Origin: Promethearchaeota archaeon
GTDB taxonomy: Archaea > Asgardarchaeota > Lokiarchaeia > Sigyniarchaeales > SOKP01
Reading direction: 5' to 3'
Length of the DNA stretch: 64,000 nt
Assembly (NCBI GenBank): GCA_048939015.1
Contig: JBHLPW010000003.1
Span: 67,628 to 131,627, forward strand
Shown one piece after another: positions 1,904 through 63,684 of this stretch. The notes beneath the pieces are model-generated. The model was not told the DNA's origin, did no database searches, and saw only the letters and a program-made list of their open reading frames with translations. A program made the translations under genes and the position numbers. How positions within the stretch are numbered: position 1 is the stretch's first letter; each line of letters begins with the position of its first letter.

Positions 1904-1995
1904 ATTATGTGAAAAATTAAATTATAAAAAATAAATATTAAAAACAACAAAAACAATATTTACAATATATAATAAATTGAAAGGTGCGAAAAAAA

Positions 1996-2253
1996 ATGCG
2001 AATCAGTGTGGAAGATAGTCGTACTGGAAAGCTAATTAAATTAGATGTTAAAAATCACCATCAGATTGAAAGAATAGTTGATATTATCATAAAGCATATG
2101 GGTATTATAAGCGCAGAACAACGTTCGTATACACTTGTCCTCAAAGATCAAGAGTTACCAAATACAATAACTATTGAGGATGCCATTCACAAATTCGGAT
2201 TACAAGAAAATGATAAGTTAATTCTATGGGCTAAAGTTATTGGTGGATTTTAA
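1996..2253 (+). CDS. Ubiquitin-like modifier (beta-grasp), pro-form ending GG-F
   Basis: MRISVED...G..IKLDV...IERIVD...LQENDKLILWAKVIGGF; 85 aa from ATG 1996 (track starts at GTG 1984); adjacent to E2/E1/JAMM. Confidence 0.85.
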   Translation: MRISVEDSRTGKLIKLDVKNHHQIERIVDIIIKHMGIISAEQRSYTLVLKDQELPNTITIEDAIHKFGLQENDKLILWAKVIGGF

Positions 2254-2279
2254 TTTAATAAATACTTAGTAAAATTTGC

Positions 2280-2840
2280 CTAATCATCTATAATTAAAAC
2301 ATCCTCCTCTTCTTCCTCTTTTTCCTCAATCTGTTCTTCAGCAATATTGAGTCCTTCTTTAATCTCACTCATTGTCTTATTTCTAAATAATTCTGCAGCT
2401 TCTAAACATATTGGATAATTAAGAGGATCATCAGGATTTGGATTTTCTACTAAATTTTTAAGTGCTTTAGCTGTAGTTTCTAAATCAGATAACCGCGACC
2501 ACTTTTTCAAAACATTAAGACAAATGTATCCTGTACCAGGATTTCCTTGGGGAATTTGAACAGGATGAATGTTAGGATGAAATATATGCGTTATCCAGGA
2601 GAAATCAATTCCGCCGGGATATGGAAATGATCTATTAATTTTCAAGAAAATGCGATGTGATCTTTGTGGTATAAGTTCTCCTTTATTTTTAATAAGTCCT
2701 AAAGCATTTATATTTATTGTGAACTCAACACTAGATTCCCCTTTAAGAACGGTATTTTCTTCCAATACCTTTAATTTTTTTATATTTGTGAGTTCATTTT
2801 CAATTCTGTCCTTCCAAATTTCATAAGGTAATTCTGGCAA
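2280..2840 (-). CDS. Ubiquitin-conjugating enzyme E2 (UBC fold)
   Basis: FPYP...IFHPNI...GYICLNVLKKW...NPNPDDPLN; HPN triad and catalytic Cys; TTG start after GAGGGG. Confidence 0.92.
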   Translation of the reverse strand: MPELPYEIWKDRIENELTNIKKLKVLEENTVLKGESSVEFTININALGLIKNKGELIPQRSHRIFLKINRSFPYPGGIDFSWITHIFHPNIHPVQIPQGNPGTGYICLNVLKKWSRLSDLETTAKALKNLVENPNPDDPLNYPICLEAAELFRNKTMSEIKEGLNIAEEQIEEKEEEEEDVLIIDD

Positions 2841-2953
2841 TTCTTTTACCCCTCATTAATTTTTTAAAATTAAATCATAATTATTATTAATTTTTTTCTT
2901 TATTATTTTTTGGATATTTTTAATTTTATTATATTCAACTTTTGTGAGCTTTT

Positions 2954-3835
2954 TCAATCTTTTTTATCATAGGAGCACGTCCAACATTCAGGATTCTTCA
3001 ATTTTTCAACAACTCTAAATTTATTTAATAATCCATTATAGTTTAACTGTTTACCAATCAAAGGTTTACCTATATAAGTATCCCATTTACCATGTTCTTT
3101 AAAATAATCTAAACCTAAGACAAATTTTAATACTTGTTGTGATTGGAGGCCTCCAATAATTGATGTTGTAGTTATAATTGTTGCTACTTTTGCCACAGTT
3201 TCACCATTTTCACTCTGAATTTCTTCACCAGTACAAGAAAATTTTTTCCACATTAAATCTAAGTCTGCATTAGAAATACTACATTGCAAACATGCAGCAT
3301 CTTTCTCTTCAGAATAAACTGCTTGAACACTACCAAAAAACTCTTCAATCCCAGAATCCACGAAAGGCACTCCATAATAATAAGCATAATTATTTGCTTG
3401 TAGTCTAGCCTCTACATTATCGAGACACGAACATATAACATCAGATTTTTGATAAAGAGTCTTATCAATATCGTTTAAATCCTTTTTTATTGCTACAATT
3501 TCGCTATCAGGATTTAATTCTTCGCATGCATTTTTCACAACATCTACTTTATATTCTTTATTTTGAGCACTTTGGTTATTAAATAACACACATCGATTTA
3601 AATTTGAAATATTTATAAAATCATAGTCTACTAATATTAATTTACCGACACCAGTTAACACTAAATTTTTCACAACTTCATTTCCTGTGGCACCAACCCC
3701 GATTATGAGAACTGTAGCGTTAGAAATCTTTTTTTGATCCCAACCCTCAATACGTTTTTGACGATCAAATTTATCTGAGTCTATAGATTCAACTCCAAAG
3801 ACTTCATAATCTGCTTTTTTTTCTTTACTTGGCAT
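2954..3835 (-). CDS. Ubiquitin-activating E1-like enzyme (ThiF/MoeB/E1 family)
   Basis: FDRQ, GVGATG, VDYD...SNLNR, CLDN, CLQC and CWTC zinc motifs, candidate catalytic Cys in FSCTG; ATG 3835 is the likely start. Confidence 0.92.
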   Translation of the reverse strand: MPSKEKKADYEVFGVESIDSDKFDRQKRIEGWDQKKISNATVLIIGVGATGNEVVKNLVLTGVGKLILVDYDFINISNLNRCVLFNNQSAQNKEYKVDVVKNACEELNPDSEIVAIKKDLNDIDKTLYQKSDVICSCLDNVEARLQANNYAYYYGVPFVDSGIEEFFGSVQAVYSEEKDAACLQCSISNADLDLMWKKFSCTGEEIQSENGETVAKVATIITTTSIIGGLQSQQVLKFVLGLDYFKEHGKWDTYIGKPLIGKQLNYNGLLNKFRVVEKLKNPECWTCSYDKKD

Positions 3836-6609: not shown

Positions 6610-7557
6610 CTAGTCTACGTAAATAATAATATCATCATCTTCTTCCTTTTTAGATTCATCAATAGCTTTTTTGTTATTATGTTGTTTTTTTAGGATCGTT
6701 CTATTTACCATTTCTTCTATAATCTTATAAATTTCATTCCTTGCTTTTTTTGATATTGCTGAAAGCCCATACGTTTTTACTCTAAAAAATTCTTCCACTT
6801 TTTCAGGAACAAGTGCTGTATTAAAATCCTGGAAGTTAGCAATAATATAAAAATCTGCTTTTTTTATCTTTTGTTCTAACAATGAAAACATCCTATGTGT
6901 ATTACGTAGATTCATTCCTCCTGAATTTGTTACAAAACAAATAATATCAACAGAATCTAAAAGTTGCCTATAATTATTTTGATTATCAACTAGATCTTGT
7001 AAGTCCATCTCTCTTATTACAATCTCCTGGATTTCCTCTAGATTTGGTAGTTTAATTGACTTCTCTACGATGTCATTGGTATCTTCATCAATTTTTATTA
7101 CCGTTTCTCCAGGAAATAAATTGAAGATGGTCGATTTCCCAGTACCCGGAACACCAACTAATAAAATCTTAGGAGGTATAAAAATGTGAGTATTAATATA
7201 TTCATCAAAACTTTCAAACTTTCCAACATCACAATCCCAATTTTTAATTTCCTGTCGATATCTCTTGAAAAATTCAAATTTAAGCGATTCTAATTTATAT
7301 CTTACTTCCTCTTCAGGATCATCAATATTGGTTACTATAATAAAAATCCAATTCTTCTCATAATCAAAGGTGAATACAATATTAAAATTTCTAAAATTTA
7401 ATGATCGTACCTCTCCCCCACCGATCTCGCTCGCTATATTGCTAATTGCTGTGAAAAAGCCACTTATAAAATCTTCATCAATAGACTCTTCGCTAAAAAA
7501 TGATTTTGAATAGCATAGAACTCCACTCGCTTTTATTATGAATATTTTTTTTATCAT
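6610..7557 (-). CDS. Longin-domain / small GTPase fusion, paralog 3
   Basis: MIKKIFIIKASGVLCYSKSF...FISGFFTAIS; GVPGTGKST; ANFQD; LSAI; acidic tail EEDDDIIIYVD; ATG 7557 aligns with paralog starts. Confidence 0.85.
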   Translation of the reverse strand: MIKKIFIIKASGVLCYSKSFFSEESIDEDFISGFFTAISNIASEIGGGEVRSLNFRNFNIVFTFDYEKNWIFIIVTNIDDPEEEVRYKLESLKFEFFKRYRQEIKNWDCDVGKFESFDEYINTHIFIPPKILLVGVPGTGKSTIFNLFPGETVIKIDEDTNDIVEKSIKLPNLEEIQEIVIREMDLQDLVDNQNNYRQLLDSVDIICFVTNSGGMNLRNTHRMFSLLEQKIKKADFYIIANFQDFNTALVPEKVEEFFRVKTYGLSAISKKARNEIYKIIEEMVNRTILKKQHNNKKAIDESKKEEDDDIIIYVD

Positions 7558-7600
7558 AGGATTTTTTATTCTTTTTTGCAATAATAGATTGTATGATTAT

Positions 7601-9484
7601 TTAATATGATTCCTCTATCATCTCAAGGAATATATCAGCTATATTAAGCCATTTATTTTTATGTTCAGGCTCTAATGTTTCTTTTTTTGTCAATTCTTTC
7701 CCTTTTTTGAGATATTTAATAGATTGATCCTTGTTTCCTAAATGTTTATAGCAAATTCCTAATTTTATATAAGTTTGATTAATATACCATTCTTCAGGAC
7801 TTAATTCAACTACTTTTTGAAATTGCACTAGTGCTTCATGGTAGTTTTGGTTATACATTAGAATCTCCCCATATGTATCTAGATAAGTAGGATTATTTGG
7901 AGAGTTCAAAATAAGATTCTCAATGATTTCTAACGATTCATCTTTTTGATCCATATACTGCAACCAGTAAGCTTTGTACATAAGTAAATCTTTATCATCT
8001 GGGTAATCTTGAAGTAATCCTTCTATAATTTCAAATCCCGCTTTAAGTTTGTTTATTCGTTTTAGAATTGATGCTTTCTTAATTTTGATTTCTCTCCTAT
8101 TCTCTGGAAATTTGTCAACCATTTCATCTAAATCCCTTGAAGCTTCATTATAACGACCTAAATAAATCAAAATTTTAATTTTAGAATAATAATTCTCCAT
8201 ATTCTGTGAATTTTTACTAATTTTCTCATTTATGTTTAAAAGTTCTTGTTCATATTGATTTTCAGATTCTTGAAATAACTCAGCCATATTTTGCCAAATA
8301 ATTCCCTCTAATTTATCCCCAATCCCTCTTAATTCAGGCTCTGTTTCAATTTTATATGCTAAATAATTAATATAATCAGGTAAAAAATTATACAGGGATT
8401 CTTCTAATCCTTTAATAAATAATTTATCTAAGCATTCTTCTAGAATTTTATCAATAATTAACTGTTTATTTATTGATTTTGAAAAGAGTCTATTAAAGTA
8501 AGTCAACATAGTAACATGTTCTTCTGTTATCGCTCTAAGCATCATTTCAATTTTTTCATTTTCTTGAAAATAATAAATCTGGTCTGATGAAACTTTTAAT
8601 TGAAAAAATTTAATCGGATATAATCCATTTTCTACAATTTGATCAATGTAATAAGTAAGGGTATTCTCTTTAATGCCATATTTCTTTGAAAATGTCTCAG
8701 GTGATTCATAGTTAGGAAATTCATTAGGGTGATTTACTGAAAGAAATAGTATAATTTTGTTAAAATCATCCTCATTTTTTAGCAATGATTCCACTCTGGT
8801 ATAATCTAATTTTACAATATTGTTTAGAAGCCTAAATTGTAAGAATTCATCCTCAATCTTATTTTTTTTAAAAAAATCAATAGTCTTGTTAGTGATTTCC
8901 TCAACTCGCTTACTTTCTCTTTCTAAAATTGATTGTCTGTCTAAATTGTAATTTTGTAGCATATAGGCATACTCGACTTTCCCTTTTCTTGTGATTTTAT
9001 ATTCCTTGCTCTCATCATCCTTTTCTACTAAACCTTCTCTTTTTAATTGTTTTAAGTATTTTGATAGTGAGGTTTGATTGATTGCAACAGGCTCTTCGAG
9101 AAAATCAGACCACTTACAGTAGCTATTGTTATAGAGCATCCATAATATCCAATGATCATAATTCCTACCTTTCTTTAGGATAATATTTGGCGGAAAGTTT
9201 ACTTTTCTTATTTCTACTGCATTTTGAGACAATTTATTGAATCGAATTATCCCATCTGGGGTAATTTTATAATGCCCTATATCAGATTTAACTATTAAAC
9301 CTTGATTTCTTAGAACTCTTAAATATCTTGACAATGTAGAAGTTGGAATTTTAAGGTTAACAAAATCAGACCACTCACTATCATCATTATTACTCAACAT
9401 CCAGAGAATAATATGCTCATAATTTTTCTTATCCATTGCTGGAGGGTTGAGAATCTCTTGAGGAGGGTAAATTTTCACTGGCAT
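7601..9484 (-). CDS. Tandem winged-helix + TPR protein (putative transcription regulator), paralog A
   Basis: Two wHTH repeats (IPTSTLSRYLRVLRNQGLI..YKITPDG; INQTSLSKYLKQLKREGLV..YKITRKG) and C-terminal TPRs (YLDTYGEIL..YHEALVQFQKVVELSP). Confidence 0.8.
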   Translation of the reverse strand: MPVKIYPPQEILNPPAMDKKNYEHIILWMLSNNDDSEWSDFVNLKIPTSTLSRYLRVLRNQGLIVKSDIGHYKITPDGIIRFNKLSQNAVEIRKVNFPPNIILKKGRNYDHWILWMLYNNSYCKWSDFLEEPVAINQTSLSKYLKQLKREGLVEKDDESKEYKITRKGKVEYAYMLQNYNLDRQSILERESKRVEEITNKTIDFFKKNKIEDEFLQFRLLNNIVKLDYTRVESLLKNEDDFNKIILFLSVNHPNEFPNYESPETFSKKYGIKENTLTYYIDQIVENGLYPIKFFQLKVSSDQIYYFQENEKIEMMLRAITEEHVTMLTYFNRLFSKSINKQLIIDKILEECLDKLFIKGLEESLYNFLPDYINYLAYKIETEPELRGIGDKLEGIIWQNMAELFQESENQYEQELLNINEKISKNSQNMENYYSKIKILIYLGRYNEASRDLDEMVDKFPENRREIKIKKASILKRINKLKAGFEIIEGLLQDYPDDKDLLMYKAYWLQYMDQKDESLEIIENLILNSPNNPTYLDTYGEILMYNQNYHEALVQFQKVVELSPEEWYINQTYIKLGICYKHLGNKDQSIKYLKKGKELTKKETLEPEHKNKWLNIADIFLEMIEESY

Positions 9485-9555
9485 TTTAGAAGAATTGATA
9501 TAAAAACTACTCTATTTAAAAATAGTGTTAGGTTCTATATATATTTATTTTGTAG

Positions 9556-9610
9556 AACTACCATAGTAATTCGGGACTACCATGAAGGTACCTTTAAAAA
9601 AACTATAAAT
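9556..9610 (+). promoter_or_regulatory. Operator-like palindrome plus BRE/TATA, copy 1
   Basis: CATAGTAATTCGGGACTACCATG (9562-9584), then 19 nt, then TATAAAT (9604-9610). Confidence 0.7.
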
Positions 9611-9721
9611 GGTTGTCATAAATACTCTTTTATGACCATTTCCATATTGTTCACTCTTAAAATTACTAATATTAATTTGGGTGTAGAATTAACAATGAGT
9701 AATAATAAGAGGGACGAAACA

Positions 9722-37916: not shown

Positions 37917-38290
37917 CAATATTAGATTTTATTTCTACTCCTTTTATTATTTTTAATTTACTACTTCTCGTTTTACCTTTATAATAATTTTTCAATAACT
38001 AGAATGTTAAATTTCGATCATATATCCAATATTTATTAACAATCTCAAAAACTAGAAGTTTTATTCTGGTATAAATAATTTAATATTTTGACCGTTCCAT
38101 AAAAAATTGATTAATTCGATAAACAGATAATCTTAAAAATATTGAAATTCAATAAACTATTAAAAAAAATATTTAATATTGATCGTGACAAAAAGATCTA
38201 TATTGGAATTTAAAAATCATCCAATATACATTTAAGAAATTTACTAATATACAATTTTGTAAAAGTACGAGGTGGATGTGTAAAAAGAGA

Positions 38291-40234
38291 ATGAAGAGTA
38301 ATGAAAATCATCGGATTGGATACTATGCTTGTCAATGAGGCGTAAATATACGGACCAAAGTTGATTGCGATGAGCTTGTAGAATATGTAAGCAATAGTTT
38401 TAATGATGTTGTGATTGCTAAAAAAAATGCTTTTCTTTGAACTGATAATGCACAAAATGAAATAATAGAGGATATTAGGGAAAAGAATTTAAACAGAATT
38501 GTAGCTTCTGCTTGAACTCCACGAACTCACGAGGTTATTTATCGAGGAACAATTGCTAAAACAGATTTAAATCCTTATTACTTTCAAATGGTAAATGTAC
38601 GCGAACATTGTTCTTGGTGTACAGATACTAAAGAAGAAGCCACAGAAAAAGCAAAAAAATTAGTTAAAAGTGGGATTGAAAGAGCTAAAAGATTAGAACC
38701 TGTTCCAATAAAAACAGTTCCGGTTACAAAAGCTACTTTAGTAGTTGGAGGAGGGATAGGTGGTATGAATGCTGCTCTTGATCTTGCCAATCAGGGAATT
38801 AAGGTCTATTTAGTTGATCAAAAAACTACAATTGGAGGAAGAATGTCTCAATTAGACAGAACTTTTCCTACGGATGACTGTGCTATATGAATTTGCGGAC
38901 CTAAAATGTTAGAAGTCAATCGAAATGAGAATATTGAGTTATTAACGTATAGCGAAGTAAAGAAAGTAGAAGGTTATGTTGGGAATTATACTGTAACAAT
39001 TGAAAAGAAACCACGATATACAACGGATGAGTGTAATGGATGTGGTGCATGCAGCGAAGTTTGTCCAGTATATGTAAGTAATTATTTTGATGAACATTTA
39101 GGTGCTCGAAAAGCAATCGATATTCCATTTGGTCAAGCAGTACCATTTCTATTTGATATTGATAGAGATGCGTGTATTGAGTGTTTTTCATGTGTAGATG
39201 CATGCGAATTAGATGCTATTGATTTCAGTCAAATACCTACAGATATTAATGTTGAAGTAGGTACGATTATTATAGCAACTGGTTGGGATATATATGAACC
39301 TTTTGGTGAATATGGCTACGGAGAATTCGAAAATGTAATAACTCAAGTTCAATTAGAACGTATTTTAGCCCCAAATGGACCACTTGAGGGACATGTGCAT
39401 CGACTTTCAGATGATAAGAAACCCAAAGAAATTGTATTTATACAATGCGTAGGAAGTCGGGAAACTGAGCGAACATATTGTAGTGGAGTATGTTGCATGC
39501 TTGCCTTAAAGAATGGGAGATTATTACTTGAAGAATTCCCTGATGCGCACATAACAATTTGTTATATTGATATTAGAACCCCTGAAAAAGGATTTGAAGA
39601 GTATTATGAACGTGCAAAAGATGCAGGGATTAGAATGATTCGTGGTAAAGTAGGTGAAATCTCGGAAGATCCAGAAACTAAAAACTTAAAAGTCAGGTTA
39701 TATTCAACTTTAACAGATAAAATTGTAAAAATTGATGCTGATTTAGTTGTATTGTCCACAGCGGCACTCCCTTCAAAAGGAACTGAACAAATTGTAAAGG
39801 TTTTAAATCTTGATACTAATACATATGGTTTTCTCACTGAATCCCATTTCGGACTGATGCCGCAAGAAACTAAATCAAAAGGAGTTTTTATAGCAGGATT
39901 TGCTCAAGGACCAAAAAATATTTCCTATTCCGTTTCTCAAGCAAGAGCGGCGGCTAGTAAAGTAGCTGAATTAACAGCACCGGGGCAAATTGATGTAGAA
40001 CTTATCACTGCTGAAGTAGATAGTGAATTCTGTATTTCATGTAGACGATGCGAAAAAGCATGCCCTAAAAGTGCCATTAGAATTGAAAAGGATATCGGTG
40101 CATTTATTGATGAAATAAATTGTGATGGATGTGGTATTTGTGCTACTTGTTGCCCTACTCAAGCAATTGATATTAGATATTATCGTGATCATCAATTATA
40201 TGCTGAAATTGATGGTTTATTAGGAGGTGATTAA
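38291..40234 (+). CDS. hdrA: Selenocysteine-containing heterodisulfide reductase subunit A (647 aa, 4 Sec)
   Basis: One frame with TGA at 38336, 38438, 38513, 38888 (CQUG, FLU, ASAUTPRTHE, DCAIUI), aligning with CHCG, YTC, ASCTPRTHE, DCAICI in Cys paralogs 43602 and 60604; alternative ATG 38276. Confidence 0.92.
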
Positions 40235-40240
40235 ACAGAT

Positions 40241-40702
40241 ATGGATCATACATATAATCTCATTGTTTTTGCGTGCTTAAAATGAGGATATAGTGCTGCA
40301 GATTTAGCTGGAGTTTCACGATTGAAATATACTTCCGCTGTAAAAATTATTAAAGTAAGATGCACTGGAAGAGTTGGTGTTAAACATATCCTCTATAGTA
40401 TTCGCTCGGGAGCTGATGGTGTTATGATTGTGGGATGACAACCAAATGAATGTCAATTTAAAAATGGAAATTTCACAGCTGAAAGACATGTTGAATTAGC
40501 AAATAGAATATTAGCATTGAGAGGCTTTGGAGATCAAAGAATAAATATGTATTGGTTAAGTGGAGGAGATGCTGGGAAATTTGTCGAATCTGTTGAGGAT
40601 GCCTACGAAAAATTAAAAAAACTAGGACCAAATCCACTTAATTTAGTAAAAGAACAATCAGAACTTGAAAGTAAACAAGTAATAACTACCCCTGCGGAAT
40701 GA
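40241..40702 (+). CDS. mvhD: Selenocysteine-containing MvhD/VhuD/FlpD [2Fe-2S] subunit (153 aa, 2 Sec)
   Basis: SD GGAGGTGA; MDHTYNLIVFACLKUGYSAADLAG...RCTGRV...VGUQPNEC; TGA 40283 and 40436 match Cys in CNWCSYAGADLAG and TGCHIGDC of paralog 46662. Confidence 0.92.
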
Positions 40703-40748
40703 TTCTTATAAATAAATTTTAGTTATAGGAAGACTAACCTTGCAAGGG
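40689..40748 (+). ncRNA. Eukaryote-type SECIS element
   Basis: ATGA (40699-40702), 11-nt arm TTCTTATAAAT, AAA apical loop, 11-nt arm AGTTATAGGAA, GA (40732-33); lower stem CCCTGCG / TGCAAGGG. Confidence 0.85.
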
Positions 40749-40820
40749 AAGGGGTTTTTAATTAGTATTCAATTAAAAAGTAAGATTTGTTATTAAAAGT
40801 TAATCCAAAAGGATGGAAAT

Positions 40821-42341
40821 ATGGTTCAAATTACAAATAATTTAAGTTTCAATGGGATATCTCCAAAAGAATTAATGGATGCTACCTATGCGGCGGTAGA
40901 AAACTTTCAAATTCGCGCTTTCTTTGAAGCAAAGGATGAAATTTTAGAAGCAGGGAAATATACTGAAGATGAGTTTTATGAGTTTTTAGATGCGATGATT
41001 AATGCTGAAACAGAGCGTAAATTAGTACTAAATTCCTTAAAAGGTAAGAAACCGTTGTTTTTAGATGAAATTGCAGAAATAATAAATGGGTTTTCACCAG
41101 AAAATGTAATTTGTGATGTTATTTATCTTAAAGAACAGGGTTATATTGAAGAACTTATCGAAATTAAAACTAAAACTGTTATCAAGAAAATAAAGGGAGA
41201 AGAAAAAGAAGTTGAAGAAAAAGAATATTTCTACAGGTATCAAGTAAAAGATGTTCCTGAGGATTTCATGGAACATTTTTTTGAACCAGTTTCTATTGTG
41301 TTTGATTCTGGAGTATGCTGTCAATGTGGATGGTGTTCATCAATTTGTCCTGTAAATGCTATTTCAGTGACAGCAGATACTTTGGAAATAAATGATGAAA
41401 TATGTATGAAATGTGGTTTATGTTACTCTGTTTGTCCAAGATCATTTTCGATAGAACAAGCAGGTAAGAGTATAAATAAACTTAATAAAACATTAGAGTT
41501 TTCAGAAAAAATTAATGGTTATATTAATACTTATAGTGCTAGTACCACTAAAGATAGTATTAAAAAAGTAAGACAAGATGGAGGGATAGTTACTTCACTC
41601 TGTCAATATCTCTTAGATAATAATCTTGTTGATGCGATTGTAGCAGTACAACATTCGGAAGAAAAATGGAAACCTGAACCTGTTATTGTGGATGATTTAA
41701 AAGATTTATATAAAACTGGAGGCACAAAATATGCAAACGCATCAACTTTAGCTATTATAGATAATACTAAGAAATACGATAAAATAGCTGTTGTAGGAAC
41801 TCCATGTATGATGAATGCTCTTGAAAAAGGTAGTCTTTTTCCAAGTGGAGTATCTTTTTTCAAGAATATAGAATATAAGATTGGTCTTTTTTGCATGGAA
41901 TCTTTTCCATATGGAGGAGTACTTGGGTTAATTAAAGAGCAATTTAATCAAGATTTCAATAAAGTAATAAAGATGGACATTAGTAGCGGCAAATTTATCA
42001 TTTATTTGGATAATGGAGAAGACTTAAATGTTCCACTAAAAGATGTAAAATCATATGCCCGTCGTAATTGTCATTTTTGTGAGGATTTAACAGCAGATTA
42101 TGCAGATATATCCGTTGGATCGATTGGATCTGGAAGTGGATGGTCTTCTGTTATAACTCGAAATAAGAAAGGTGAAGAAATTTTTAAGGGAGCTATTAAG
42201 GCAGGATTAATAGAATCTAAAAGTTTAAAGGATGTTAAGCCAGGACTATCCCTATTAGAAAGAATTGCTGGTACAAAGAGAAAAAATTGTAAACCAATTG
42301 ATTTAAAGAAAGAAAAAGAAAGGAGTGACAATCATAACTGA
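40821..42341 (+). CDS. FrhB-family F420-oxidoreductase beta subunit with N-terminal extension
   Basis: CCQCGWCSSICP, CMKCGLCYSVCP, QDGGIVT, VGTPC, GLFCME, CHFCED, ADISVGSIGS. Confidence 0.88.
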   Translation: MVQITNNLSFNGISPKELMDATYAAVENFQIRAFFEAKDEILEAGKYTEDEFYEFLDAMINAETERKLVLNSLKGKKPLFLDEIAEIINGFSPENVICDVIYLKEQGYIEELIEIKTKTVIKKIKGEEKEVEEKEYFYRYQVKDVPEDFMEHFFEPVSIVFDSGVCCQCGWCSSICPVNAISVTADTLEINDEICMKCGLCYSVCPRSFSIEQAGKSINKLNKTLEFSEKINGYINTYSASTTKDSIKKVRQDGGIVTSLCQYLLDNNLVDAIVAVQHSEEKWKPEPVIVDDLKDLYKTGGTKYANASTLAIIDNTKKYDKIAVVGTPCMMNALEKGSLFPSGVSFFKNIEYKIGLFCMESFPYGGVLGLIKEQFNQDFNKVIKMDISSGKFIIYLDNGEDLNVPLKDVKSYARRNCHFCEDLTADYADISVGSIGSGSGWSSVITRNKKGEEIFKGAIKAGLIESKSLKDVKPGLSLLERIAGTKRKNCKPIDLKKEKERSDNHN

Positions 42342-43602
42342 AATTGAAAAATCGAAGAAGTTAAAACCAGTTTCAGGTGACAACAATGAATATTTGAAAA
42401 AAATATTCGAGCCAGATTTAAGCAATTTGTTAAAGAAATGTTATCAGTGCGCTCGTTGCTCAGGTGTATGCCAAATCAGCAAAGTTCAAAAATTTACTCC
42501 TAGTAGAATTATTCAAACAATATTAGAAGGTTTTGAAGAGGACATAATCAATAGTGGAGTGTTATGGGACTGTTTAATGTGCAATAGTTGCCTACAACAT
42601 TGCCCTAAAGAAATTAATTTTGCTGATATTGTTAGAATTGCTAGATATAAAATGAAAATAAATGATATTCAAAATCCTGATCGTTCTATTGCTCATAAAG
42701 GAATTTATCCTTTAATGTCAGAAATGATGAGTCAAGACAATATAGAAATTGAGAGACCTTTAGATTGGGTACCAAAAGGATGTAAAATTTCAGATAAAGG
42801 AAATATTTTATACTACGTGGGATGTTTACCTTTTTTCAATTATGAATTTGAAGATTCATTTTCTATAGCGGAAAGCACCCTTAAAATTATTTGTCAATTA
42901 GAGAATGATCCAGTTGTAGTTTTGAAAGATGAAATATGCTGTGGTCACGATTTATATTGGGGCCAAGCAAAATTCGAAAGTTTTATTGAATTAGCAAAAA
43001 AAAATCTTAAACTTTTTGAGGAAACAGGAGCAAATACAATAGTTACTGCTTGTGCTGAATGTTATAGAACTTTTAAAATCGATTATTCAAAACTATTTGA
43101 AGATTTTAATGAAAAGTTTGAAGTAAAACATATAATTGAATATATCTATGATAAATGGAAGCAGGGAAAAGTTCAATTTAAAAATCCTAATGAATCTAAT
43201 GATGTTATTCCTTTTACTTATCATGATCCATGTAGATTAAGTAGATTTTTACCAAAGGATAATAAAATTGTGGAGAATGTCCGAGAAATCTTCAAATATT
43301 TGAAAACCATTGGTTATAATTTTAAAGAAATGGAGCATAATAAAGAAAATTCTTATTGCTGTGGAGTAAATTCTTGGATGAATTGTAATGAACGGTCTAA
43401 AGCTTTAAGATATAAACGTCTTTTAGAAGCTAAAGCAGTTGGGAATAAAATGATTACAGCCTGTCCAAAATGCCGAATGCATTTGAATTGTTTAAAGAAA
43501 GATTATGATGCTTTTTCTTCTATAGAAATTATAGATTTTTCAGAATTTTTAGTAGATTTGATCGTGTTAATAGAACCTGATCAAAATATTGAGGGGAAGT
43601 AA
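42325..43602 (+). CDS. HdrD-like (HdrC-HdrB type) Fe-S/CCG oxidoreductase
   Basis: CYQCARCSGVC, CLMCNSCLQHCP, CCG twice, CAEC, YHDPC, CPKC; start may be ATA 42334. Confidence 0.88.
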   Translation: MTIITEIEKSKKLKPVSGDNNEYLKKIFEPDLSNLLKKCYQCARCSGVCQISKVQKFTPSRIIQTILEGFEEDIINSGVLWDCLMCNSCLQHCPKEINFADIVRIARYKMKINDIQNPDRSIAHKGIYPLMSEMMSQDNIEIERPLDWVPKGCKISDKGNILYYVGCLPFFNYEFEDSFSIAESTLKIICQLENDPVVVLKDEICCGHDLYWGQAKFESFIELAKKNLKLFEETGANTIVTACAECYRTFKIDYSKLFEDFNEKFEVKHIIEYIYDKWKQGKVQFKNPNESNDVIPFTYHDPCRLSRFLPKDNKIVENVREIFKYLKTIGYNFKEMEHNKENSYCCGVNSWMNCNERSKALRYKRLLEAKAVGNKMITACPKCRMHLNCLKKDYDAFSSIEIIDFSEFLVDLIVLIEPDQNIEGK

Positions 43603-46600
43603 TGGAGAAAGTCGGAGCTGTCTTAGTTATTGGTGGTGGAATTGCTGGTATTCAAACATCTATAGATTTAGCAGACTCAGGTTATAAAGTATATTTAGCA
43701 GAATCTACAACTAGTATTGGGGGAGTTATGTCTCAGCTAGATAAAACATTTCCCACTAATGATTGTGCAATTTGTATACTTGCTCCGAAGTTAGTACAAA
43801 CTGGTCGACATGAAAATATAGATATTTTAATTAATTCTTCGGTTGAAAAAATTGAAGGAGTCCCTGGTAATTTTAATGTTGAGTTGACTCAAACAACACT
43901 TCGTTTGGATCAAAGTAAATGCACAGGATGTGGTTTGTGCGCTCAACAATGCCCTATAGAGGCTATTGATTTTTTTAATGAAAAACTCTCTAATAATGCT
44001 GCAATTTCTGTAAAATTCCCTCAAGCAGTTCCCTTAGTCTTCTCAATTAATAAAGAAAAATGTATAGGTTGTGGTATTTGTAGGGGAATATGTAAAGCAA
44101 AAGCTATAAATTATGATCTTGAGGATAAACTTATTAATCTCAATGTAGGTGCTATTGTACTAGCAATTGGATTTGATGAATACGATCCTACGCCTTTAAC
44201 AGAATTAGGTTATGGTAAGCATTTAAATGTAATTACTAGTATTGAGTTTGAACGTATACTTAGTGCTAGTGGTCCACATTCAGGGTTAATAATTCGTCCC
44301 TCTGATGGAATTATTCCCAAAAAAATAGCCTTTCTACATTGTATAGGATCAAGGGATAGAAAGCATAGAATTGATTACTGTTCTTCTGTATGTTGTATGT
44401 ATACTACAAAGGAAGCGGTTATTGCAAAAGAGCATATGAATATTGTAAAACCAACAATTTTTACAATGGATATAAGGGCATATGGCAAAGATTTTGATAA
44501 ATATATTGAACGAGCGAAAAATGAATATGGTGTAAGATATATTAGACGCAGAATATCTTCTATTAAAGAAATTCCAGACTCTAAAGATTTAAAGGTGTAT
44601 TATGAAAATGGACATGGGAAAATTGTTGAAGAAATATTTAATTTAGTTGTCCTTTCTGTGGGAATGCAACCTAACCGACAAGCAAATAAATTAGCACAGA
44701 AACTAAGTATCCAGTTAAATGAATATGGTTTTTGTAAAACAGGAACTTTTAACCCAGTAGAAACATCGAAACCTGGAATTTATGTGTGTGGTTCTTTCGC
44801 AACGCCTAAAGATATTCCAGAAACAGTTATTGAAGCTAGTGCTGCTGCGGGGCAAGTAAATGTTCTTTTATCAGAAGCAAGAAATACTTTAGTCTCTAAG
44901 AAGGAACTCCCTGAGGAACTAGATGTAAGTGATCAACCCCCGCGAATCGGTGTATTTATTTGTCATTGTGGTATAAATATTGGTGGGGTTGTTGATGTTC
45001 CTGCAGTAGTTGAATATGTTAAAACTTTGCCCAATGTTGCTTATGCTGAGCATAATTTATATACTTGTTCAGCTGATACTCAAACTAATATTAAAGAAAA
45101 AATCATAAAGAATCAACTTAATAGGGTTATTGTCGCATCATGTACTCCAAGGACACATGAACCTTTATTTCAAGCGACAATCAGGGAGGTTGGGTTAAAT
45201 AAATATCTTTTTGAAATGGTGAATATTCGAGATCAGTGTTCATGGGTTCATATGCATGAACCTGAAAAAGCAACAGCAAAAGCTAAAGACCTATTGCGCA
45301 TGTCAGTTGCAAAGGCTAGTCAATTGATCCCGTTGCAAGAACAAGAAATATCTGTAATAGACAAAGGTCTAATCATAGGTGGTGGTGTATCTGGAATGTC
45401 AGCAGCGTTAAATTTGGCTTCTCAAGGATATGAAGTGTTCTTAATTGAAAAAGAAGATTCACTAGGTGGTTTCGCTAAAAATATTTTTCAAACCCTTGAA
45501 AATGACAATGTTCAAGAATTTCTTGAAAACCTAATTAATAAAGTTGAAAATAATCAACTAATCCAGGTGTTTAAAAACACTGAAATCAAATCTATATCCG
45601 GATACATTGGAAATTTTTCTACAAATATAACTTATGGCAATAATGGTAAAAGTATTGATTTAGATCATGGGATAATCATCGTAGCCACTGGTGCAAAAGA
45701 ATATCAGCCAAAAGAATATAGTTACAGAAAAGATGAAAGAATTATATTACAGACTGAGTTTGAAAAAGTTCTATTTACTACTGACAAGATCAAAGGATTA
45801 AAATCAATAGTAATGATCCAATGTGTAGGATCGAGAAATGAAGATCATCCTTATTGTAGCAGAATTTGCTGCTCAGAAGCAATAAAAAATGCCTTAAAAG
45901 CAAAAGAAATAAACCCTGAAATAGAAATAGTCATCCTATATCGTGATATTCGAACATATGGTTTTAAAGAAAAATACTACAACTTAGCACGAGATAATAA
46001 GATAATATTTCTTAGATTCGATGAATCTAAACCCCCAGAATTAAAAATTAAAAATAAAAGGTTAACAATTATAACAAATAATCCAGATTTAGGGAAACTT
46101 GAAATAAATCCTGATTTAGTTGTATTAAGTACAGGACTCATAGCACCTATAAAAGAAAATGAGGAACTTGCTAAAATGTTAAAAGTTCCTCTTAATGAAG
46201 ACAAATTCTTTTTAGAAGCTCATGTTAAATTGAGACCAATTGATTTTGCTACGGATGGCATATATTTATGTGGAACTGCTCATTCACCAAAAGATCTTCG
46301 AGAATCAATAGCACAATCAAATGGAGCTGCTGCTCAAGCTGTTAAAATTTTAAGTGCTGAAAAACTCGTCACATCAGGACTTGTAGCAGTTGTAATTGAA
46401 GAAAATTGCATTGGATGTGGAAGCTGTATGGAAGTCTGTCAATTTAATGCTATTGAATTAATAGAGAAAGAAAAAACATTCGAAGATATTACAATGACTA
46501 TAAGAAAATCTCATGTAAATCCTGCACTCTGTAAAGGTTGTGGTACATGTGGTGCGCAATGTCCTAATTCAACAATTGTTATAAAACATTTTGGATTTGA

Positions 46601-46643
46601 GCAAATCCATGCAATGATATCGGCACTTCTAGTCCAAACCTAA
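43602..46643 (+). CDS. hdrA: Large (two-module) heterodisulfide reductase subunit A
   Basis: GGGIAG, LDKTFPTNDCAIC, ferredoxin motifs, CSSVCCM, CHCG, CTPRTHE, second FAD module. Confidence 0.93.
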   Translation: MEKVGAVLVIGGGIAGIQTSIDLADSGYKVYLAESTTSIGGVMSQLDKTFPTNDCAICILAPKLVQTGRHENIDILINSSVEKIEGVPGNFNVELTQTTLRLDQSKCTGCGLCAQQCPIEAIDFFNEKLSNNAAISVKFPQAVPLVFSINKEKCIGCGICRGICKAKAINYDLEDKLINLNVGAIVLAIGFDEYDPTPLTELGYGKHLNVITSIEFERILSASGPHSGLIIRPSDGIIPKKIAFLHCIGSRDRKHRIDYCSSVCCMYTTKEAVIAKEHMNIVKPTIFTMDIRAYGKDFDKYIERAKNEYGVRYIRRRISSIKEIPDSKDLKVYYENGHGKIVEEIFNLVVLSVGMQPNRQANKLAQKLSIQLNEYGFCKTGTFNPVETSKPGIYVCGSFATPKDIPETVIEASAAAGQVNVLLSEARNTLVSKKELPEELDVSDQPPRIGVFICHCGINIGGVVDVPAVVEYVKTLPNVAYAEHNLYTCSADTQTNIKEKIIKNQLNRVIVASCTPRTHEPLFQATIREVGLNKYLFEMVNIRDQCSWVHMHEPEKATAKAKDLLRMSVAKASQLIPLQEQEISVIDKGLIIGGGVSGMSAALNLASQGYEVFLIEKEDSLGGFAKNIFQTLENDNVQEFLENLINKVENNQLIQVFKNTEIKSISGYIGNFSTNITYGNNGKSIDLDHGIIIVATGAKEYQPKEYSYRKDERIILQTEFEKVLFTTDKIKGLKSIVMIQCVGSRNEDHPYCSRICCSEAIKNALKAKEINPEIEIVILYRDIRTYGFKEKYYNLARDNKIIFLRFDESKPPELKIKNKRLTIITNNPDLGKLEINPDLVVLSTGLIAPIKENEELAKMLKVPLNEDKFFLEAHVKLRPIDFATDGIYLCGTAHSPKDLRESIAQSNGAAAQAVKILSAEKLVTSGLVAVVIEENCIGCGSCMEVCQFNAIELIEKEKTFEDITMTIRKSHVNPALCKGCGTCGAQCPNSTIVIKHFGFEQIHAMISALLVQT

Positions 46644-46661: not shown

Positions 46662-47093
46662 ATGTCTAAGTCAAAAAAGAAAGTAAGTAAAAAAGATTTT
46701 CACCCAAACATATTGTGTTTTTGTTGTAATTGGTGTAGTTATGCTGGGGCAGATTTAGCTGGTGTATCACGTTTTCAATATCCCTCTACCATTAGAATTG
46801 TACGGGTAATGTGTTCTGGTCGAGTAGACCCCGCTTTTATTTTAGAGGCGTTTAAAGATGGTATTGATGGTGTCATTGTGACAGGGTGTCATATTGGTGA
46901 TTGTCACTATCTGAAAGGCAATGAGTTCGCTAGAGATAGATTTGAACGTTTTAAAGAAATACTAAAAATATTTCATCTTGATAAAAGATTTAGACTTGAA
47001 TGGGTAAGTGCATCTGAAGGAAAACGATTTGCTGAAGTTATTACTGAATTTACTAATCAAATTAAAAAATTAGGACCATTACAATCAATCTAA
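46662..47093 (+). CDS. mvhD: MvhD/FlpD [2Fe-2S] subunit (Cys form)
   Basis: CCNWCSYAGADLAG, VMCSGRV, GCHIGDCHY, WVSASEG. Confidence 0.95.
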   Translation: MSKSKKKVSKKDFHPNILCFCCNWCSYAGADLAGVSRFQYPSTIRIVRVMCSGRVDPAFILEAFKDGIDGVIVTGCHIGDCHYLKGNEFARDRFERFKEILKIFHLDKRFRLEWVSASEGKRFAEVITEFTNQIKKLGPLQSI

Positions 47094-60603: not shown

Positions 60604-63600
60604 ATGGAGGGATCTGTATTAGTTATAGGTGGAGGTATTGCCGGAATACAAACCTCCTTAGATTTAACTGAATTAGGATTTAAAGTCTACTTAGTAGAAA
60701 GAACACCTTCAATTGGAGGAAGAATGGCTCAGCTTGATAAAACATTTCCTACAAATGATTGTAGCCTGTGTATACTTGCTCCTAAGATGGTAGAAGTCTT
60801 CAGAAATCCTAACATCGAACTCATGACATATCATGAGGTTGAAAAAGTTACAGGGAAACCAGGAAATTTTATGGTCTCAATTCTTAAGAAACCTCGATAT
60901 ATTGATGAAACTAAATGCAAGGGATGTGGGGATTGTGCCTCGAAATGTCCAAAGATTGAAACACCAAATATTTTCGATATGAATTTAGGCAAAAGAAAAT
61001 CCGTTTATATTCCTTTTCCTCAAGCAGTACCTCCTATTTATTTAATTGATTCTGAAATGTGTTTAAAATTAACTAAGGGTGTTTGTGGCGTATGCGAAAA
61101 AGTTTGTAAAGCAGAAGCAATTGATTTTGGGCAAAAGCCTCGAGAAATCAAATTAAATGTTGGTGCTATTGTTGTTGCTACTGGATTTGATGTTTTGGGA
61201 GAAGAATTAACCTCAAGATGGGGCTATAAATATAAAAATGTAGTAAGTGCTTTAGAATATGAACGTATATTATCAGCTTCTGGACCATTTGAAGGTCATA
61301 TTAAGCGACCTAGTGATGAAAAAGAGCCAGAAAAAATAGCATTCATACAGTGTGCGGGATCAAGGGATTTACGTGAAGGAATTCCTTATTGTTCAAGTGT
61401 ATGTTGTATGTATATCGCTAAAGAAGCTGTAATTACAAAAGAACATTCTGAAACCTCAAAATGTTATGTATTTAGGCATGATGTGAGAGCTTACGGTAAA
61501 AATTTTTATGAATTTACCCAGAGAGCTCAGGAAGAATATGGAGTAGAATATTTTCAGACTAAAATTAGCAGAATAATAGAAGACCCAGAATCAAATGATT
61601 TAGTGATTCATTATGAAGATTTAAAAACAGGAGAATTTAAAGATTTTAGGGCAAATCTAGTGGTATTAGCTACACCTCTTGTGCCATCAGCTGGAACTAA
61701 AGAACTAGCTAAAATTTTAGATATTGAGTTGGATGATTATAATTTCTTCAAAGAAAAATCCTATTTTGATAAATCTTTATCCTCTAAAGAAGGTATTTTC
61801 TTAGCTGGATTTTGTCAAGGTCCAATGGACATACCAGAAACAGTAGCTGACTCCAGTGGTGTAGCATCACAAGTAGCAACTATGCTTAATTCTTTTAAAT
61901 TTACTGAAACAAAGGAAAAAATTAGTGGAAAACCAGAAAAACCTGTTTCAGAAATAGATGCACCTAGAATTGGGGTACTCATATGTCATTGTGGAATTAA
62001 TATTGGAAAATATATTGATATTCCTCAAGTCATAGAACAGATAAAAGCCTTACCAAATGTGGTATTTTGTGAAGATAATTTATATTCATGCAGCTCTGAT
62101 TCTCAAGAACGAATTAAAGAAGTAATAGAGGAATATAATTTGAATAGATTTATTGTAGCATCTTGCACTCCTAGAACACATGAGAGTTTATTTCAAGAAA
62201 CATGTGAAGAAGCGGGACTAAATAAATATCTATTTGAAATGGTTAATATCCGTGATCAATGTTCATGGGTACATATGACAGAAAAGGAGCTTGCTACGGA
62301 TAAGGCAGTCGATTTAATAAGAATGGGTGTTGCTAAATCAAGATTATTAAAACCACAAACAGAATCAAAACTAAAAATCAATCAATCTGCATTAGTAATT
62401 GGAGGGGGTATTTCTGGAATGACTGCTGCATTAAATATAGCTAACCAAGGTTTTACTGTTTATCTCGTAGAAAAAGATAAATATTTGGGTGGAAATTTAA
62501 AGTATTTAAATATGTTATACCCTACTCAAGAAGATGCTTCAATTTTATTGAATGAAACCATAGAAAAGGTTTCAAAGAAAAAAAACATTCAAGTTTTCTT
62601 GAATTCTAATTTGAAAGATATTAATGGATATATTGGAAATTATAATGTTTTACTTAGCGATGCGGATAATAATGCGCATGATTTAAGAATTGGTACAATT
62701 ATAGTTGCCACAGGAGGTCAAGAATTAAAACCCAATGAATTTTTTGATTATACTTATACGAATCATAATGTAATTACACAATTACAGTTAGAACAAAAAT
62801 TAAAGGATGAAGATCAATCATGGTTAGGCAAACTTAATCACATAACTACTCTATTATGTGTGAACGCAAGACAAGAAAAAGGGATAACCTATTGCTCGAA
62901 CATTTGTTGTGAAAGTGCAATAAAAAACATCAACATTCTAAAAGAATTAAAGCAAGACCTCAAATTAATCGTTCTCTATAGAGATCTTCAAATGGCAAAG
63001 AAGGAATTTGAAAGATATTATCGTGAGCGTAGAAAAGATGCTATTTTTTTGAGATATGATTTAGATAATCCACCTGAGATAAAAGAGATAAATGGAGGTA
63101 CTAGTAAGTTCGAAATTAATATCTTCGATACTAATCTACAAGATAATATCAAATTTAATACAGATTTAATCGTTCTTTCAACGCCAATGGTTCCCCCTGA
63201 TAATTTAGATAACTTAGCAAAAATGCTTAAAGTTCCCTTAGACAAGAATGGATTTTTTCTGGAAGCTCATGTTAAATTACGACCACTAGATTTTGCTACC
63301 GATGGGATCTTCTTGTGTGGCTGTGCGCATTGGCCAAAAAATATTCAAGATTCAATATCACAAGCTAATGGAGCTGCCGGAAGAGCGTGTAGGTTTTTAA
63401 GTGCAGAGGAAATTACCACATCTGGATTAATAGCAGAAGTGGATCAAGACACATGTATTGGATGTGGAACATGTGAAGAAGCGTGTTCATATAATGCAAT
63501 AGAAATTACAGAAGTCTTGAAGGAATTTGAAGAAGTGAGTCTTCCGATAAAAAAATCTACTGTTAATTCAGGATTATGTAAAGGTTGTGGAACGTGTGCT

Positions 63601-63684
63601 GTTAATTGTCCAGTTGGGGCTATTTCAATAAAACACTACGATTTTGAACAAATTAATGCGATGATTAAAACCCTTGTAATGTAA
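60604..63684 (+). CDS. hdrA: Large (two-module) heterodisulfide reductase subunit A, stand-alone paralog
   Basis: Collinear with 43602-46643: GGGIAG, TNDCSLC, CSSVCCM, CHCG, CTPRTHE, LEAHVKLRPLDF. Confidence 0.93.
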   Translation: MEGSVLVIGGGIAGIQTSLDLTELGFKVYLVERTPSIGGRMAQLDKTFPTNDCSLCILAPKMVEVFRNPNIELMTYHEVEKVTGKPGNFMVSILKKPRYIDETKCKGCGDCASKCPKIETPNIFDMNLGKRKSVYIPFPQAVPPIYLIDSEMCLKLTKGVCGVCEKVCKAEAIDFGQKPREIKLNVGAIVVATGFDVLGEELTSRWGYKYKNVVSALEYERILSASGPFEGHIKRPSDEKEPEKIAFIQCAGSRDLREGIPYCSSVCCMYIAKEAVITKEHSETSKCYVFRHDVRAYGKNFYEFTQRAQEEYGVEYFQTKISRIIEDPESNDLVIHYEDLKTGEFKDFRANLVVLATPLVPSAGTKELAKILDIELDDYNFFKEKSYFDKSLSSKEGIFLAGFCQGPMDIPETVADSSGVASQVATMLNSFKFTETKEKISGKPEKPVSEIDAPRIGVLICHCGINIGKYIDIPQVIEQIKALPNVVFCEDNLYSCSSDSQERIKEVIEEYNLNRFIVASCTPRTHESLFQETCEEAGLNKYLFEMVNIRDQCSWVHMTEKELATDKAVDLIRMGVAKSRLLKPQTESKLKINQSALVIGGGISGMTAALNIANQGFTVYLVEKDKYLGGNLKYLNMLYPTQEDASILLNETIEKVSKKKNIQVFLNSNLKDINGYIGNYNVLLSDADNNAHDLRIGTIIVATGGQELKPNEFFDYTYTNHNVITQLQLEQKLKDEDQSWLGKLNHITTLLCVNARQEKGITYCSNICCESAIKNINILKELKQDLKLIVLYRDLQMAKKEFERYYRERRKDAIFLRYDLDNPPEIKEINGGTSKFEINIFDTNLQDNIKFNTDLIVLSTPMVPPDNLDNLAKMLKVPLDKNGFFLEAHVKLRPLDFATDGIFLCGCAHWPKNIQDSISQANGAAGRACRFLSAEEITTSGLIAEVDQDTCIGCGTCEEACSYNAIEITEVLKEFEEVSLPIKKSTVNSGLCKGCGTCAVNCPVGAISIKHYDFEQINAMIKTLVM

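Follow-up and report, generated by a model that had tools for sequence, protein, structure and literature searches.

An hdrA-mvhD pair with six in-frame UGA codons, very probably read as selenocysteine, and a probable shared lokiSECIS in a Lokiarchaeial genome

Are the six TGA codons that interrupt an hdrA-mvhD pair in a Promethearchaeota archaeon (Lokiarchaeia; GCA_048939015.1) read as selenocysteine (Sec), and if so, which signal directs their decoding and what might the selenium be for? The pair lies in a window of 64,000 nucleotides, the whole stretch of DNA that was analysed, and a preliminary description of this window had claimed that it is hidden from the open reading frame track. This is the case, as translation under table 11 leaves only three fragments (38588-38890, 38906-40234 and 40517-40702), and reading through TGA yields two frames, one of 647 codons (38291-40234) and one of 153 codons (40241-40702). 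The bounds of the unit, 38291-40702, are exact, and the start at 38291 is backed by orthologs with an open frame beginning there. The read-through frames and an alignment of orthologs both confirm the four in-frame TGA codons noted for hdrA and the two noted for mvhD. The two genes and their predicted Sec codons are the following.

38291-40234, forward strand: hdrA, 647 codons from ATG 38291 to a TAA stop at 40232, encoding a full-length HdrA
38336-38338, forward strand: predicted Sec codon U16 of HdrA, motif C-Q-U-G; TGA in 77/77 orthologs, Cys in 5/5 solved HdrA and in the window paralogs
38438-38440, forward strand: predicted Sec codon U50 of HdrA, motif F-L-U; TGA in 55/77 and TGT/TGC in 22/77 orthologs, Cys in 5/5 solved HdrA
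38513-38515, forward strand: predicted Sec codon U75 of HdrA, motif A-U-T-P-R; TGA in 77/77 orthologs, Cys in 5/5 solved HdrA
38888-38890, forward strand: predicted Sec codon U200 of HdrA, the canonical HdrA Sec site, motif D-D-C-A-I-U-I-C; TGA in 80/80 orthologs
40241-40702, forward strand: mvhD/vhuD (FlpD family), 153 codons, starting 6 nt past the hdrA stop and ending in TGA at 40700
40283-40285, forward strand: predicted Sec codon U15 of MvhD; TGA in 79/79 orthologs, X in 9sfi_K, Cys16 in Methanothermobacter marburgensis MvhD
40436-40438, forward strand: predicted Sec codon U66 of MvhD; TGA in 77/77 orthologs, X in 9sfi_K, Cys67 in M. marburgensis MvhD

Both products are readily assigned. 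HdrA combines an N-terminal Cys-motif domain, a FAD/thioredoxin-reductase-like domain and inserted and C-terminal 2x[4Fe-4S] ferredoxin domains, with Pfam matches to the Fer4 and Pyr_redox families. Against the solved M. maripaludis HdrA (9sfi_A) it reaches 670 bits over residues 7-645, and against 5odc_A 655 bits; both alignments are complete from end to end. MvhD matches Pfam FlpD (PF02662) with 140.9 bits against a cut-off of 22.3 and aligns to VhuD (9sfi_K) with 134.8 bits. The statement that every TGA falls on a Cys of paralogs in the window proved correct at all six columns (fused HdrA genes at 43617-45629 and 60613-62655; MvhD at 46695-47078), and orthologs and five solved HdrA agree with it. 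Across the solved HdrA and MvhD structures all six columns hold Cys or Sec, and in the solved methanococcal proteins Sec (X) occupies the canonical HdrA site as well as the two MvhD sites. U200 aligns with the X of 9sfi_A (Sec197 of M. maripaludis), with Cys197 of 5odc_A and with Cys205 of the Cys202/Cys205 pair in M. marburgensis HdrA. Three of the codons (16, 50 and 75) do cluster in the N-terminal Cys-motif domain, as the preliminary description had it. Given 32 Cys/Sec columns among the 647 residues of HdrA and five among the 153 of MvhD, simple arithmetic puts the probability that six stops would hit only such columns by chance at about 6e-9.

The alignment of orthologs that had been proposed as a check for TGA/Cys exchange comprised 80 loci from distinct species genomes, with HdrA 74-93% identical and with per-site counts covering only the loci in which the position was readable (77-80). 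These loci come from Promethearchaeota/Promethearchaeia MAGs, which bears out the earlier view of the host as a Loki-type Asgard archaeon. HdrA positions 16, 75 and 200 and MvhD positions 15 and 66 are TGA in every readable ortholog and never TGT or TGC. Sec/Cys exchange was seen at HdrA position 50, where both codon types occur among the 77 orthologs in the numbers given above. A four-Sec HdrA ortholog is conserved over at least 50 species genomes, and at least 77 have one with either four or three Sec; the orthologs keep all 32 Cys/Sec columns. A search of genomes recovered the ortholog in 18 congeners at 80-93% identity; the open frames there span about 647-694 codons and contain 3-5 TGA codons. 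In five orthologs HdrA has a fifth UGA, which falls on Cys 298, 301 or 614 of the ferredoxin domains and makes seven UGA codons per SECIS, more than the published maximum of six.

We also searched the genome for the machinery of Sec synthesis and insertion. Contig C77 carries EFSec/SelB (236 bits), SepSecS (477 bits) and tRNA-Sec (61 bits in Rfam; anticodon tca according to ARAGORN). A protein of the NCBIfam family Sel_Asgard (227 bits) adjoins SepSecS, and there are two SelD genes with one in-frame TGA each. PSTK was not found in the 94.9%-complete assembly with TIGR03574, Pfam KTI12 or tblastn with a congener PSTK; a weak match on contig C33 turned out to be an adenylyl-sulfate kinase. PSTK is present in 24 of 25 congeners (121-157 bits), and its absence here most likely means that the gene is part of the approximately 5% of the MAG left unassembled. 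The machinery expected by the preliminary description is therefore present for four of five components (tRNA-Sec, SepSecS, EFSec and SelD), with PSTK missing from the assembly. Neither a genome devoid of Sec machinery nor decay in the orthologs, the two outcomes named as speaking against selenoproteins, applies to this locus.

The preliminary description had noted that Lokiarchaeota use eukaryote-like SECIS elements, and such an element is found directly behind mvhD.

40688-40755, forward strand: putative lokiSECIS (Asgard type I eSECIS-like), identified by shape match, covariation and position

A lower stem of 6 bp (40688-40693 with 40750-40755) leads to an AUGA core at 40699-40702, the UGA of which is the mvhD stop codon. 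Above it stand an upper stem of 9 bp (40703-40711 with 40723-40731), an apical loop of 11 nt (AUAAAUUUUAG, 40712-40722) and, after the upper stem, a GA at 40732-40733. The predicted hairpin matches the published lokiSECIS shape exactly (PMC4989117) and is the sole match to the pattern in 38200-40900. Over 9.7 Mb, with both strands counted, the strict pattern has 14 matches, and three of these lie directly behind Sec-type mvhD genes. Within this genome the element occurs no more than 70 nt behind all four Sec-type mvhD and within 300 nt of none of the eight Cys-type mvhD. It is likewise present in 74/74 orthologous loci with a complete mvhD end, and in 52 of these 74 the UGA within the AUGA core serves as the stop codon of mvhD. 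RNAalifold gave a consensus structure with compensatory pairs, and eight of the nine upper-stem pairs covary among 74 elements from orthologs and paralogs. In this alignment 94% of upper-stem cells are paired, compared with 42-57% when the partners are slid, and none of 500 shuffles reached the observed covariation score. An Rfam cmscan of 40600-40850 at E<=10 returned no SECIS family, only a chance PreQ1 match. The case for the RNA rests on covariation and position because the single-sequence fold of the element does not exceed shuffled sequences in stability (z = -0.81).

Taken from the sequence, the six UGA codons of hdrA-mvhD are best read as Sec, and we hold this reading with high confidence. 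The alternative that survives best is that UGA is read as Cys or another standard residue, or mostly terminates, so that the pair would be a selenium-sensing or attenuated gene. That Cys is tolerated at position 50, where TGA swaps freely with TGT/TGC, fits this idea, as does the fact that no archaeon has been shown to decode four UGA codons processively with one distant SECIS, which is itself an inference in the earlier work (PMC4989117). The other five positions, however, are TGA in 77-80 of 77-80 orthologs and never TGT/TGC, which argues for selection for Sec. Further, the genome has a dedicated tRNA-Sec, SepSecS and EFSec, the SECIS strictly co-occurs with TGA-bearing pairs, and in the experimentally solved homologs from M. 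maripaludis Sec is present at two sites of these families (PMC13518236). We therefore consider decoding as Cys, or termination, unlikely and prefer Sec at all six codons.

Slightly less probable still is a division of labor in which hdrA has a different Sec signal of its own, in its coding region or 5' UTR, leaving the downstream lokiSECIS to mvhD alone. The distance and the cistron boundary between the hdrA UGA codons and the SECIS would favor such a signal, and the search within hdrA covered lokiSECIS-shaped patterns only. Against it, no second lokiSECIS-like pattern lies in 38200-40900, and Mariotti et al. saw none near any HdrA-VhuD pair, RNAz included (PMC4989117). Moreover, hdrA always ends in UAA or UAG (TAA or TAG in 19/19 congeners), as expected if the downstream SECIS reaches hdrA, since a UGA stop there would be recoded. 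A separate signal for hdrA is thus improbable, and a single downstream lokiSECIS shared by both genes remains the preferred reading.

Two further alternatives have very little in their favor. A genetic code with TGA as a sense codon throughout the genome (tables 4 or 25), with no Sec, would also leave the frames open, but we reject it as 413 of 2986 long stop-to-stop frames in the genome (14%) and 6 of 38 in the window still close with TGA, in-frame TGA occurs only at Cys columns in a small number of selenoprotein families, and tRNA-Sec and SECIS are present. Equally remote are decaying pseudogenes or TGA codons created by assembly or sequencing errors: the standard ORF call does break both genes, yet we reject both readings on the retention of the same TGA codons in 80 orthologous loci, on independent runs (the TGA positions are covered by contigs of run X2, from an independent study, and of run X3, with no difference listed there) and on purifying selection. 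No frameshifts are seen, and stops fall at Cys columns only, in the window gene and in nearly all orthologs; just four stops outside these columns occur in the 80 loci, at least two of them in small inserts. Between the TGA codons 43-74% of codon changes are synonymous, so the region behind the first stop is under purifying selection.

The proposed bicistronic unit is supported by the 6-nt spacer between hdrA and mvhD, retained in most orthologs, and by GGAGGTGA at 40222-40229, within the hdrA 3' end and ahead of mvhD. Directly behind the SECIS lower stem lies a short T run, and GGGGTTTTT is retained behind the SECIS in many orthologs. The surroundings contain the following features.

40756-40760, forward strand: T5 run directly behind the SECIS lower stem, a probable archaeal transcript end of the bicistron
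40821-42341: FrhB-like gene, downstream of mvhD
42325-43602: HdrD-like CCG-domain gene, downstream of the FrhB-like gene
43602-46643: fused HdrA-HdrA, downstream of hdrA-mvhD
46662-47093: Cys-type MvhD, downstream of the fused HdrA-HdrA

The spacer, GGAGGTGA in the hdrA 3' end and the T run behind the SECIS together suggest one bicistronic mRNA, and hdrA and mvhD are thus probably co-transcribed. A scan for bacterial-type promoters and terminators was uninformative, the host being an archaeon. None of the neighbors of hdrA-mvhD is an adjoining hydrogenase; a single [NiFe] large subunit is encoded in the genome, on contig C95, and the host is not a methanogen.

How could six UGA codons be decoded from one element? 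We infer Sec insertion at all six, and the route we propose would begin with Sec-tRNA(Sec) made by SerRS, PSTK, SepSecS and SelD and delivered to the four hdrA and two mvhD codons by an EFSec of the archaeal/eukaryotic type. A single 3' SECIS of the kink-turn type would direct all six, up to 2.36 kb upstream and across the cistron boundary. The UAA stop of hdrA would allow safe termination there, and the UGA stop of mvhD, within the SECIS core, would be too near for recoding. The product would be the HdrA/MvhD part of a complex for flavin-based electron bifurcation (or confurcation), with selenium atoms lining its mobile arm and with HdrA U200 and MvhD U15 as 'extra' Sec residues facing the flavin.

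The putative ligation of clusters by Sec residues differs in plausibility from site to site. The HdrA N-terminal domain binds a [4Fe-4S] cluster (HA3 or A3) described as a mobile low-potential electron 'shuttle' (PMC12350162, PMC13580544, PMC13518236). In the five solved HdrA this domain has exactly four invariant Cys, which correspond to residues 14, 16, 50 and 75 here. Three of these four are Sec in this HdrA as we read it, so most ligands of the N-terminal [4Fe-4S] cluster are probably selenolates. We assign the ligands from invariance and from statements of homology, because we found no residue-level ligand list for this cluster in open papers. MvhD U66 is at one of the four other conserved Cys positions and presumably ligates the [2Fe-2S] cluster.

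For the canonical position the published accounts disagree. Cys197 of M. thermolithotrophicus HdrA, the equivalent of U200, was described as a residue that ligates the N-terminal cluster of the partner (PMC9012536), whereas two cryo-EM papers from 2026 describe a Cys/Sec pair near the FAD that binds an unknown ligand or forms a selenylsulfide (PMC13580544, PMC13518236). By homology, U200 and MvhD U15 can be matched to the 'additional', non-ligand cysteines near the flavin in the 2026 papers. That several ligands of the Fe-S clusters in this complex are Se, as had been suggested, is therefore plausible for U16, U50, U75 and MvhD U66 but doubtful for U200 and MvhD U15. Going further, we tentatively propose, while regarding it as somewhat less probable than an even chance, that the HA3 cluster, by which the low-potential electron leaves the bifurcating flavin, is held mainly by selenolates, with U200 of the partner subunit maybe a further ligand, and would thus be a natural, largely Se-ligated cubane tuned for bifurcation. 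All six Sec would then lie on the path between mobile arm and flavin, and the seventh UGA of the five orthologs would extend Se ligation to further clusters.

The arrangement itself is already known, having been published in 2016 and surveyed in 2024. Mariotti et al. reported Lokiarchaeota HdrA with up to four Sec, the extra ones at conserved N-terminal Cys, a VhuD that contains two Sec and is always found directly downstream of HdrA, and one shared SECIS for as many as six UGA codons over about 2 kb (PMC4989117). They also noted that HdrA always ends in UAA or UAG and that the AUGA core can double as a UGA stop (PMC4989117). Huang et al. surveyed 1439 Asgard selenoprotein sequences and found hdrA and frhD "always located together" (PMC11227280); the supplement text searched, apparently without the selenoprotein tables, has no match to the Sec motifs of this protein. 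The locus resembles the Lokiarchaeota HdrA-VhuD pairs in gene order, very short spacer, Sec sites, UAA/UAG stop and host lineage (PMC4989117, PMC11227280), and its element resembles the published lokiSECIS behind vhuD in its AUGA, a stem of 9 bp, an A-rich loop of 11 nt with AG at the end, and GA (PMC4989117). Nothing essential differs, except that here the mvhD stop is the core UGA, a situation described in 2016 for VhuU.1 (PMC4989117). Judged on its sequence, the locus is a Lokiarchaeial HdrA-VhuD pair with a shared putative lokiSECIS in every defining feature that can be tested, except that PSTK is missing from the assembly. The description of this HdrA as unusually Sec-rich holds in comparison with methanogens only; for Lokiarchaeota, four Sec in HdrA and six UGA per pair were on record in 2016 (PMC4989117).

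The closest counterparts outside the Lokiarchaeota are the HdrA(U)/VhuD proteins of the Methanococcales (M. maripaludis Hdr-Vhu-Fwd, PDB 9sfi, PMC13518236), which are homologous and share the canonical HdrA and the two VhuD Sec sites. However, methanococcal HdrA has one Sec, and each methanococcal gene uses an archaeal SECIS of the GAA_A type. The element resembles eukaryotic type I SECIS of multi-UGA mRNAs such as SelP, with a 3' UTR location, an AUGA...GA core, two helices (lower and upper) and unpaired A residues in its apical loop, and it would share with SelP-type SECIS the long-distance action on several UGA codons. In contrast to eukaryotic type I SECIS, its upper stem is shorter (9 bp), it would serve two cistrons of a prokaryotic mRNA and it has no Rfam match. 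We know of no SBP2 or SBP2-like factor for lokiSECIS.

What is fresh here is minor: the breadth of four-Sec orthologs, the mapping to the mobile arm and flavin path, and the five orthologs with a fifth HdrA UGA. As read from its sequence, the pair would be the extreme example in nature of a single SECIS that acts across a cistron boundary and on many UGA codons at a distance. Gene callers split such genes, and counts of the electron-bifurcating machinery in Lokiarchaeia come out too low as a result. Mapped on the cryo-EM models of 2025-2026, the six predicted Sec residues all lie on the mobile arm and beside the flavin, which offers a concrete hypothesis for what this organism may use selenium for.

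The selenocysteine (Sec) machinery of the genome that carries the window (G000, whose contigs bear C numbers) is gathered largely in a single locus on contig C77 (L057).

Sec machinery locus L057 (G000:C77:8000-20000), positions within the locus
1953-3383, minus strand: EFSec
7345-7437: tRNA-Sec
7462-8838: SepSecS
8959-9639: Sel_Asgard protein, 226 residues (NCBIfam NF045535, 227 bits)

To our knowledge, no SBP2 is known in archaea. The 226-residue protein has no Pfam domain and matches an NCBIfam family named 'Sel_Asgard, putative selenocysteine system protein'. PSTK was not found in the G000 assembly when two family models and the protein of a congener were used as queries; it was found in 24 out of 25 congeners, and its absence from G000 is most likely an assembly gap.

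Besides the window pair, G000 was found to encode three Sec-type hdrA-mvhD pairs, each with its own lokiSECIS, the eukaryote-like hairpin for Sec insertion. The stem sequences of these three lokiSECIS elements are mutually unrelated. Three full-length Cys-type pairs, with Cys at the Sec positions, were also identified on C46, C6 and C59, and the window itself harbors two fused HdrA-HdrA paralogs.

Further Sec-type pairs of G000 and fused paralogs of the window
C21:111634-113995: Sec-type hdrA-mvhD pair, 2+2 UGA, own lokiSECIS
C76:49784-52201: Sec-type hdrA-mvhD pair, 2+2 UGA, own lokiSECIS
C70:72530-74899: Sec-type hdrA-mvhD pair, 3+2 UGA, own lokiSECIS
Window 43602-46643: fused HdrA-HdrA
Window 60604-63684: fused HdrA-HdrA

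In both fused paralogs the losses are complementary between the halves, such that the first half retains the Cys197/Cys200 pair and lacks the N-terminal domain while the second half retains the four N-terminal Cys and has lost the Cys197/Cys200 pair. The same pattern of loss has been described for ANME archaea, in their fused or tandem HdrA proteins (PMC9012536).

Our search also revealed other selenoprotein candidates in G000 that are accompanied by a lokiSECIS.

Other selenoprotein candidates of G000
C12:165142-165636 (locus L141:1343-1837), minus strand: protein of ~155 residues, adjacent in-frame TGA pair (VVHAD-U-U), own lokiSECIS
C121 (locus L142:1254-1499), plus strand: 82-residue one-helix membrane ORF, motif NGGGG-U-GC, perfect lokiSECIS 3' of it at C121:12914
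C107:3174 and 3902 (locus L143), minus strand: two tandem Prx-like selenoprotein genes, one lokiSECIS each

Neither the ~155-residue protein nor the membrane ORF has a Pfam match, and the former is conserved with both TGA codons in 33 of the 41 genomes searched, including G000. The two Prx-like genes differ in motif, with W-U-S-H-C in one and W-U-T-Y-U in the other; the latter motif may form a diselenide, as in PrxL.1 of Mariotti 2016 (PMC4989117).

Just 3' of the SECIS and T-run of the window pair lies TAGTATTCAATTAAAA (window 40761-40790), a motif that most orthologs from congeners preserve within an otherwise variable spacer. It may serve the FrhB-like gene at 40821 as its promoter (BRE/TATA).

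Comparison with the orthologous loci of other genomes (L numbers) showed that hdrA is interrupted in four of them by hairpin inserts of 34-39 nt, either stop-containing or frame-breaking, at two different sites: after codon ~102 in L064 (~971-1009) and L073, and after codon ~107 in L125 and L135. Within each of these two pairs the stems are conserved and the loops are not, and the predicted fold of the inserts is helix-bulge-helix in shape. These inserts are probably mini-introns of the tRNA type (bulge-helix-bulge). The window's own hdrA has no such hairpin insert.

Finally, a fifth in-frame TGA was observed in hdrA of five orthologs, each time at a ferredoxin-domain Cys in the inserted or C-terminal domain, namely Cys614 in L071, Cys301 in L078, L101 and L117, and Cys298 in L136. 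Each of these hdrA-mvhD pairs thus has seven UGA codons in total, which exceeds the 'up to six' per pair given for Lokiarchaeota by Mariotti 2016 (PMC4989117).
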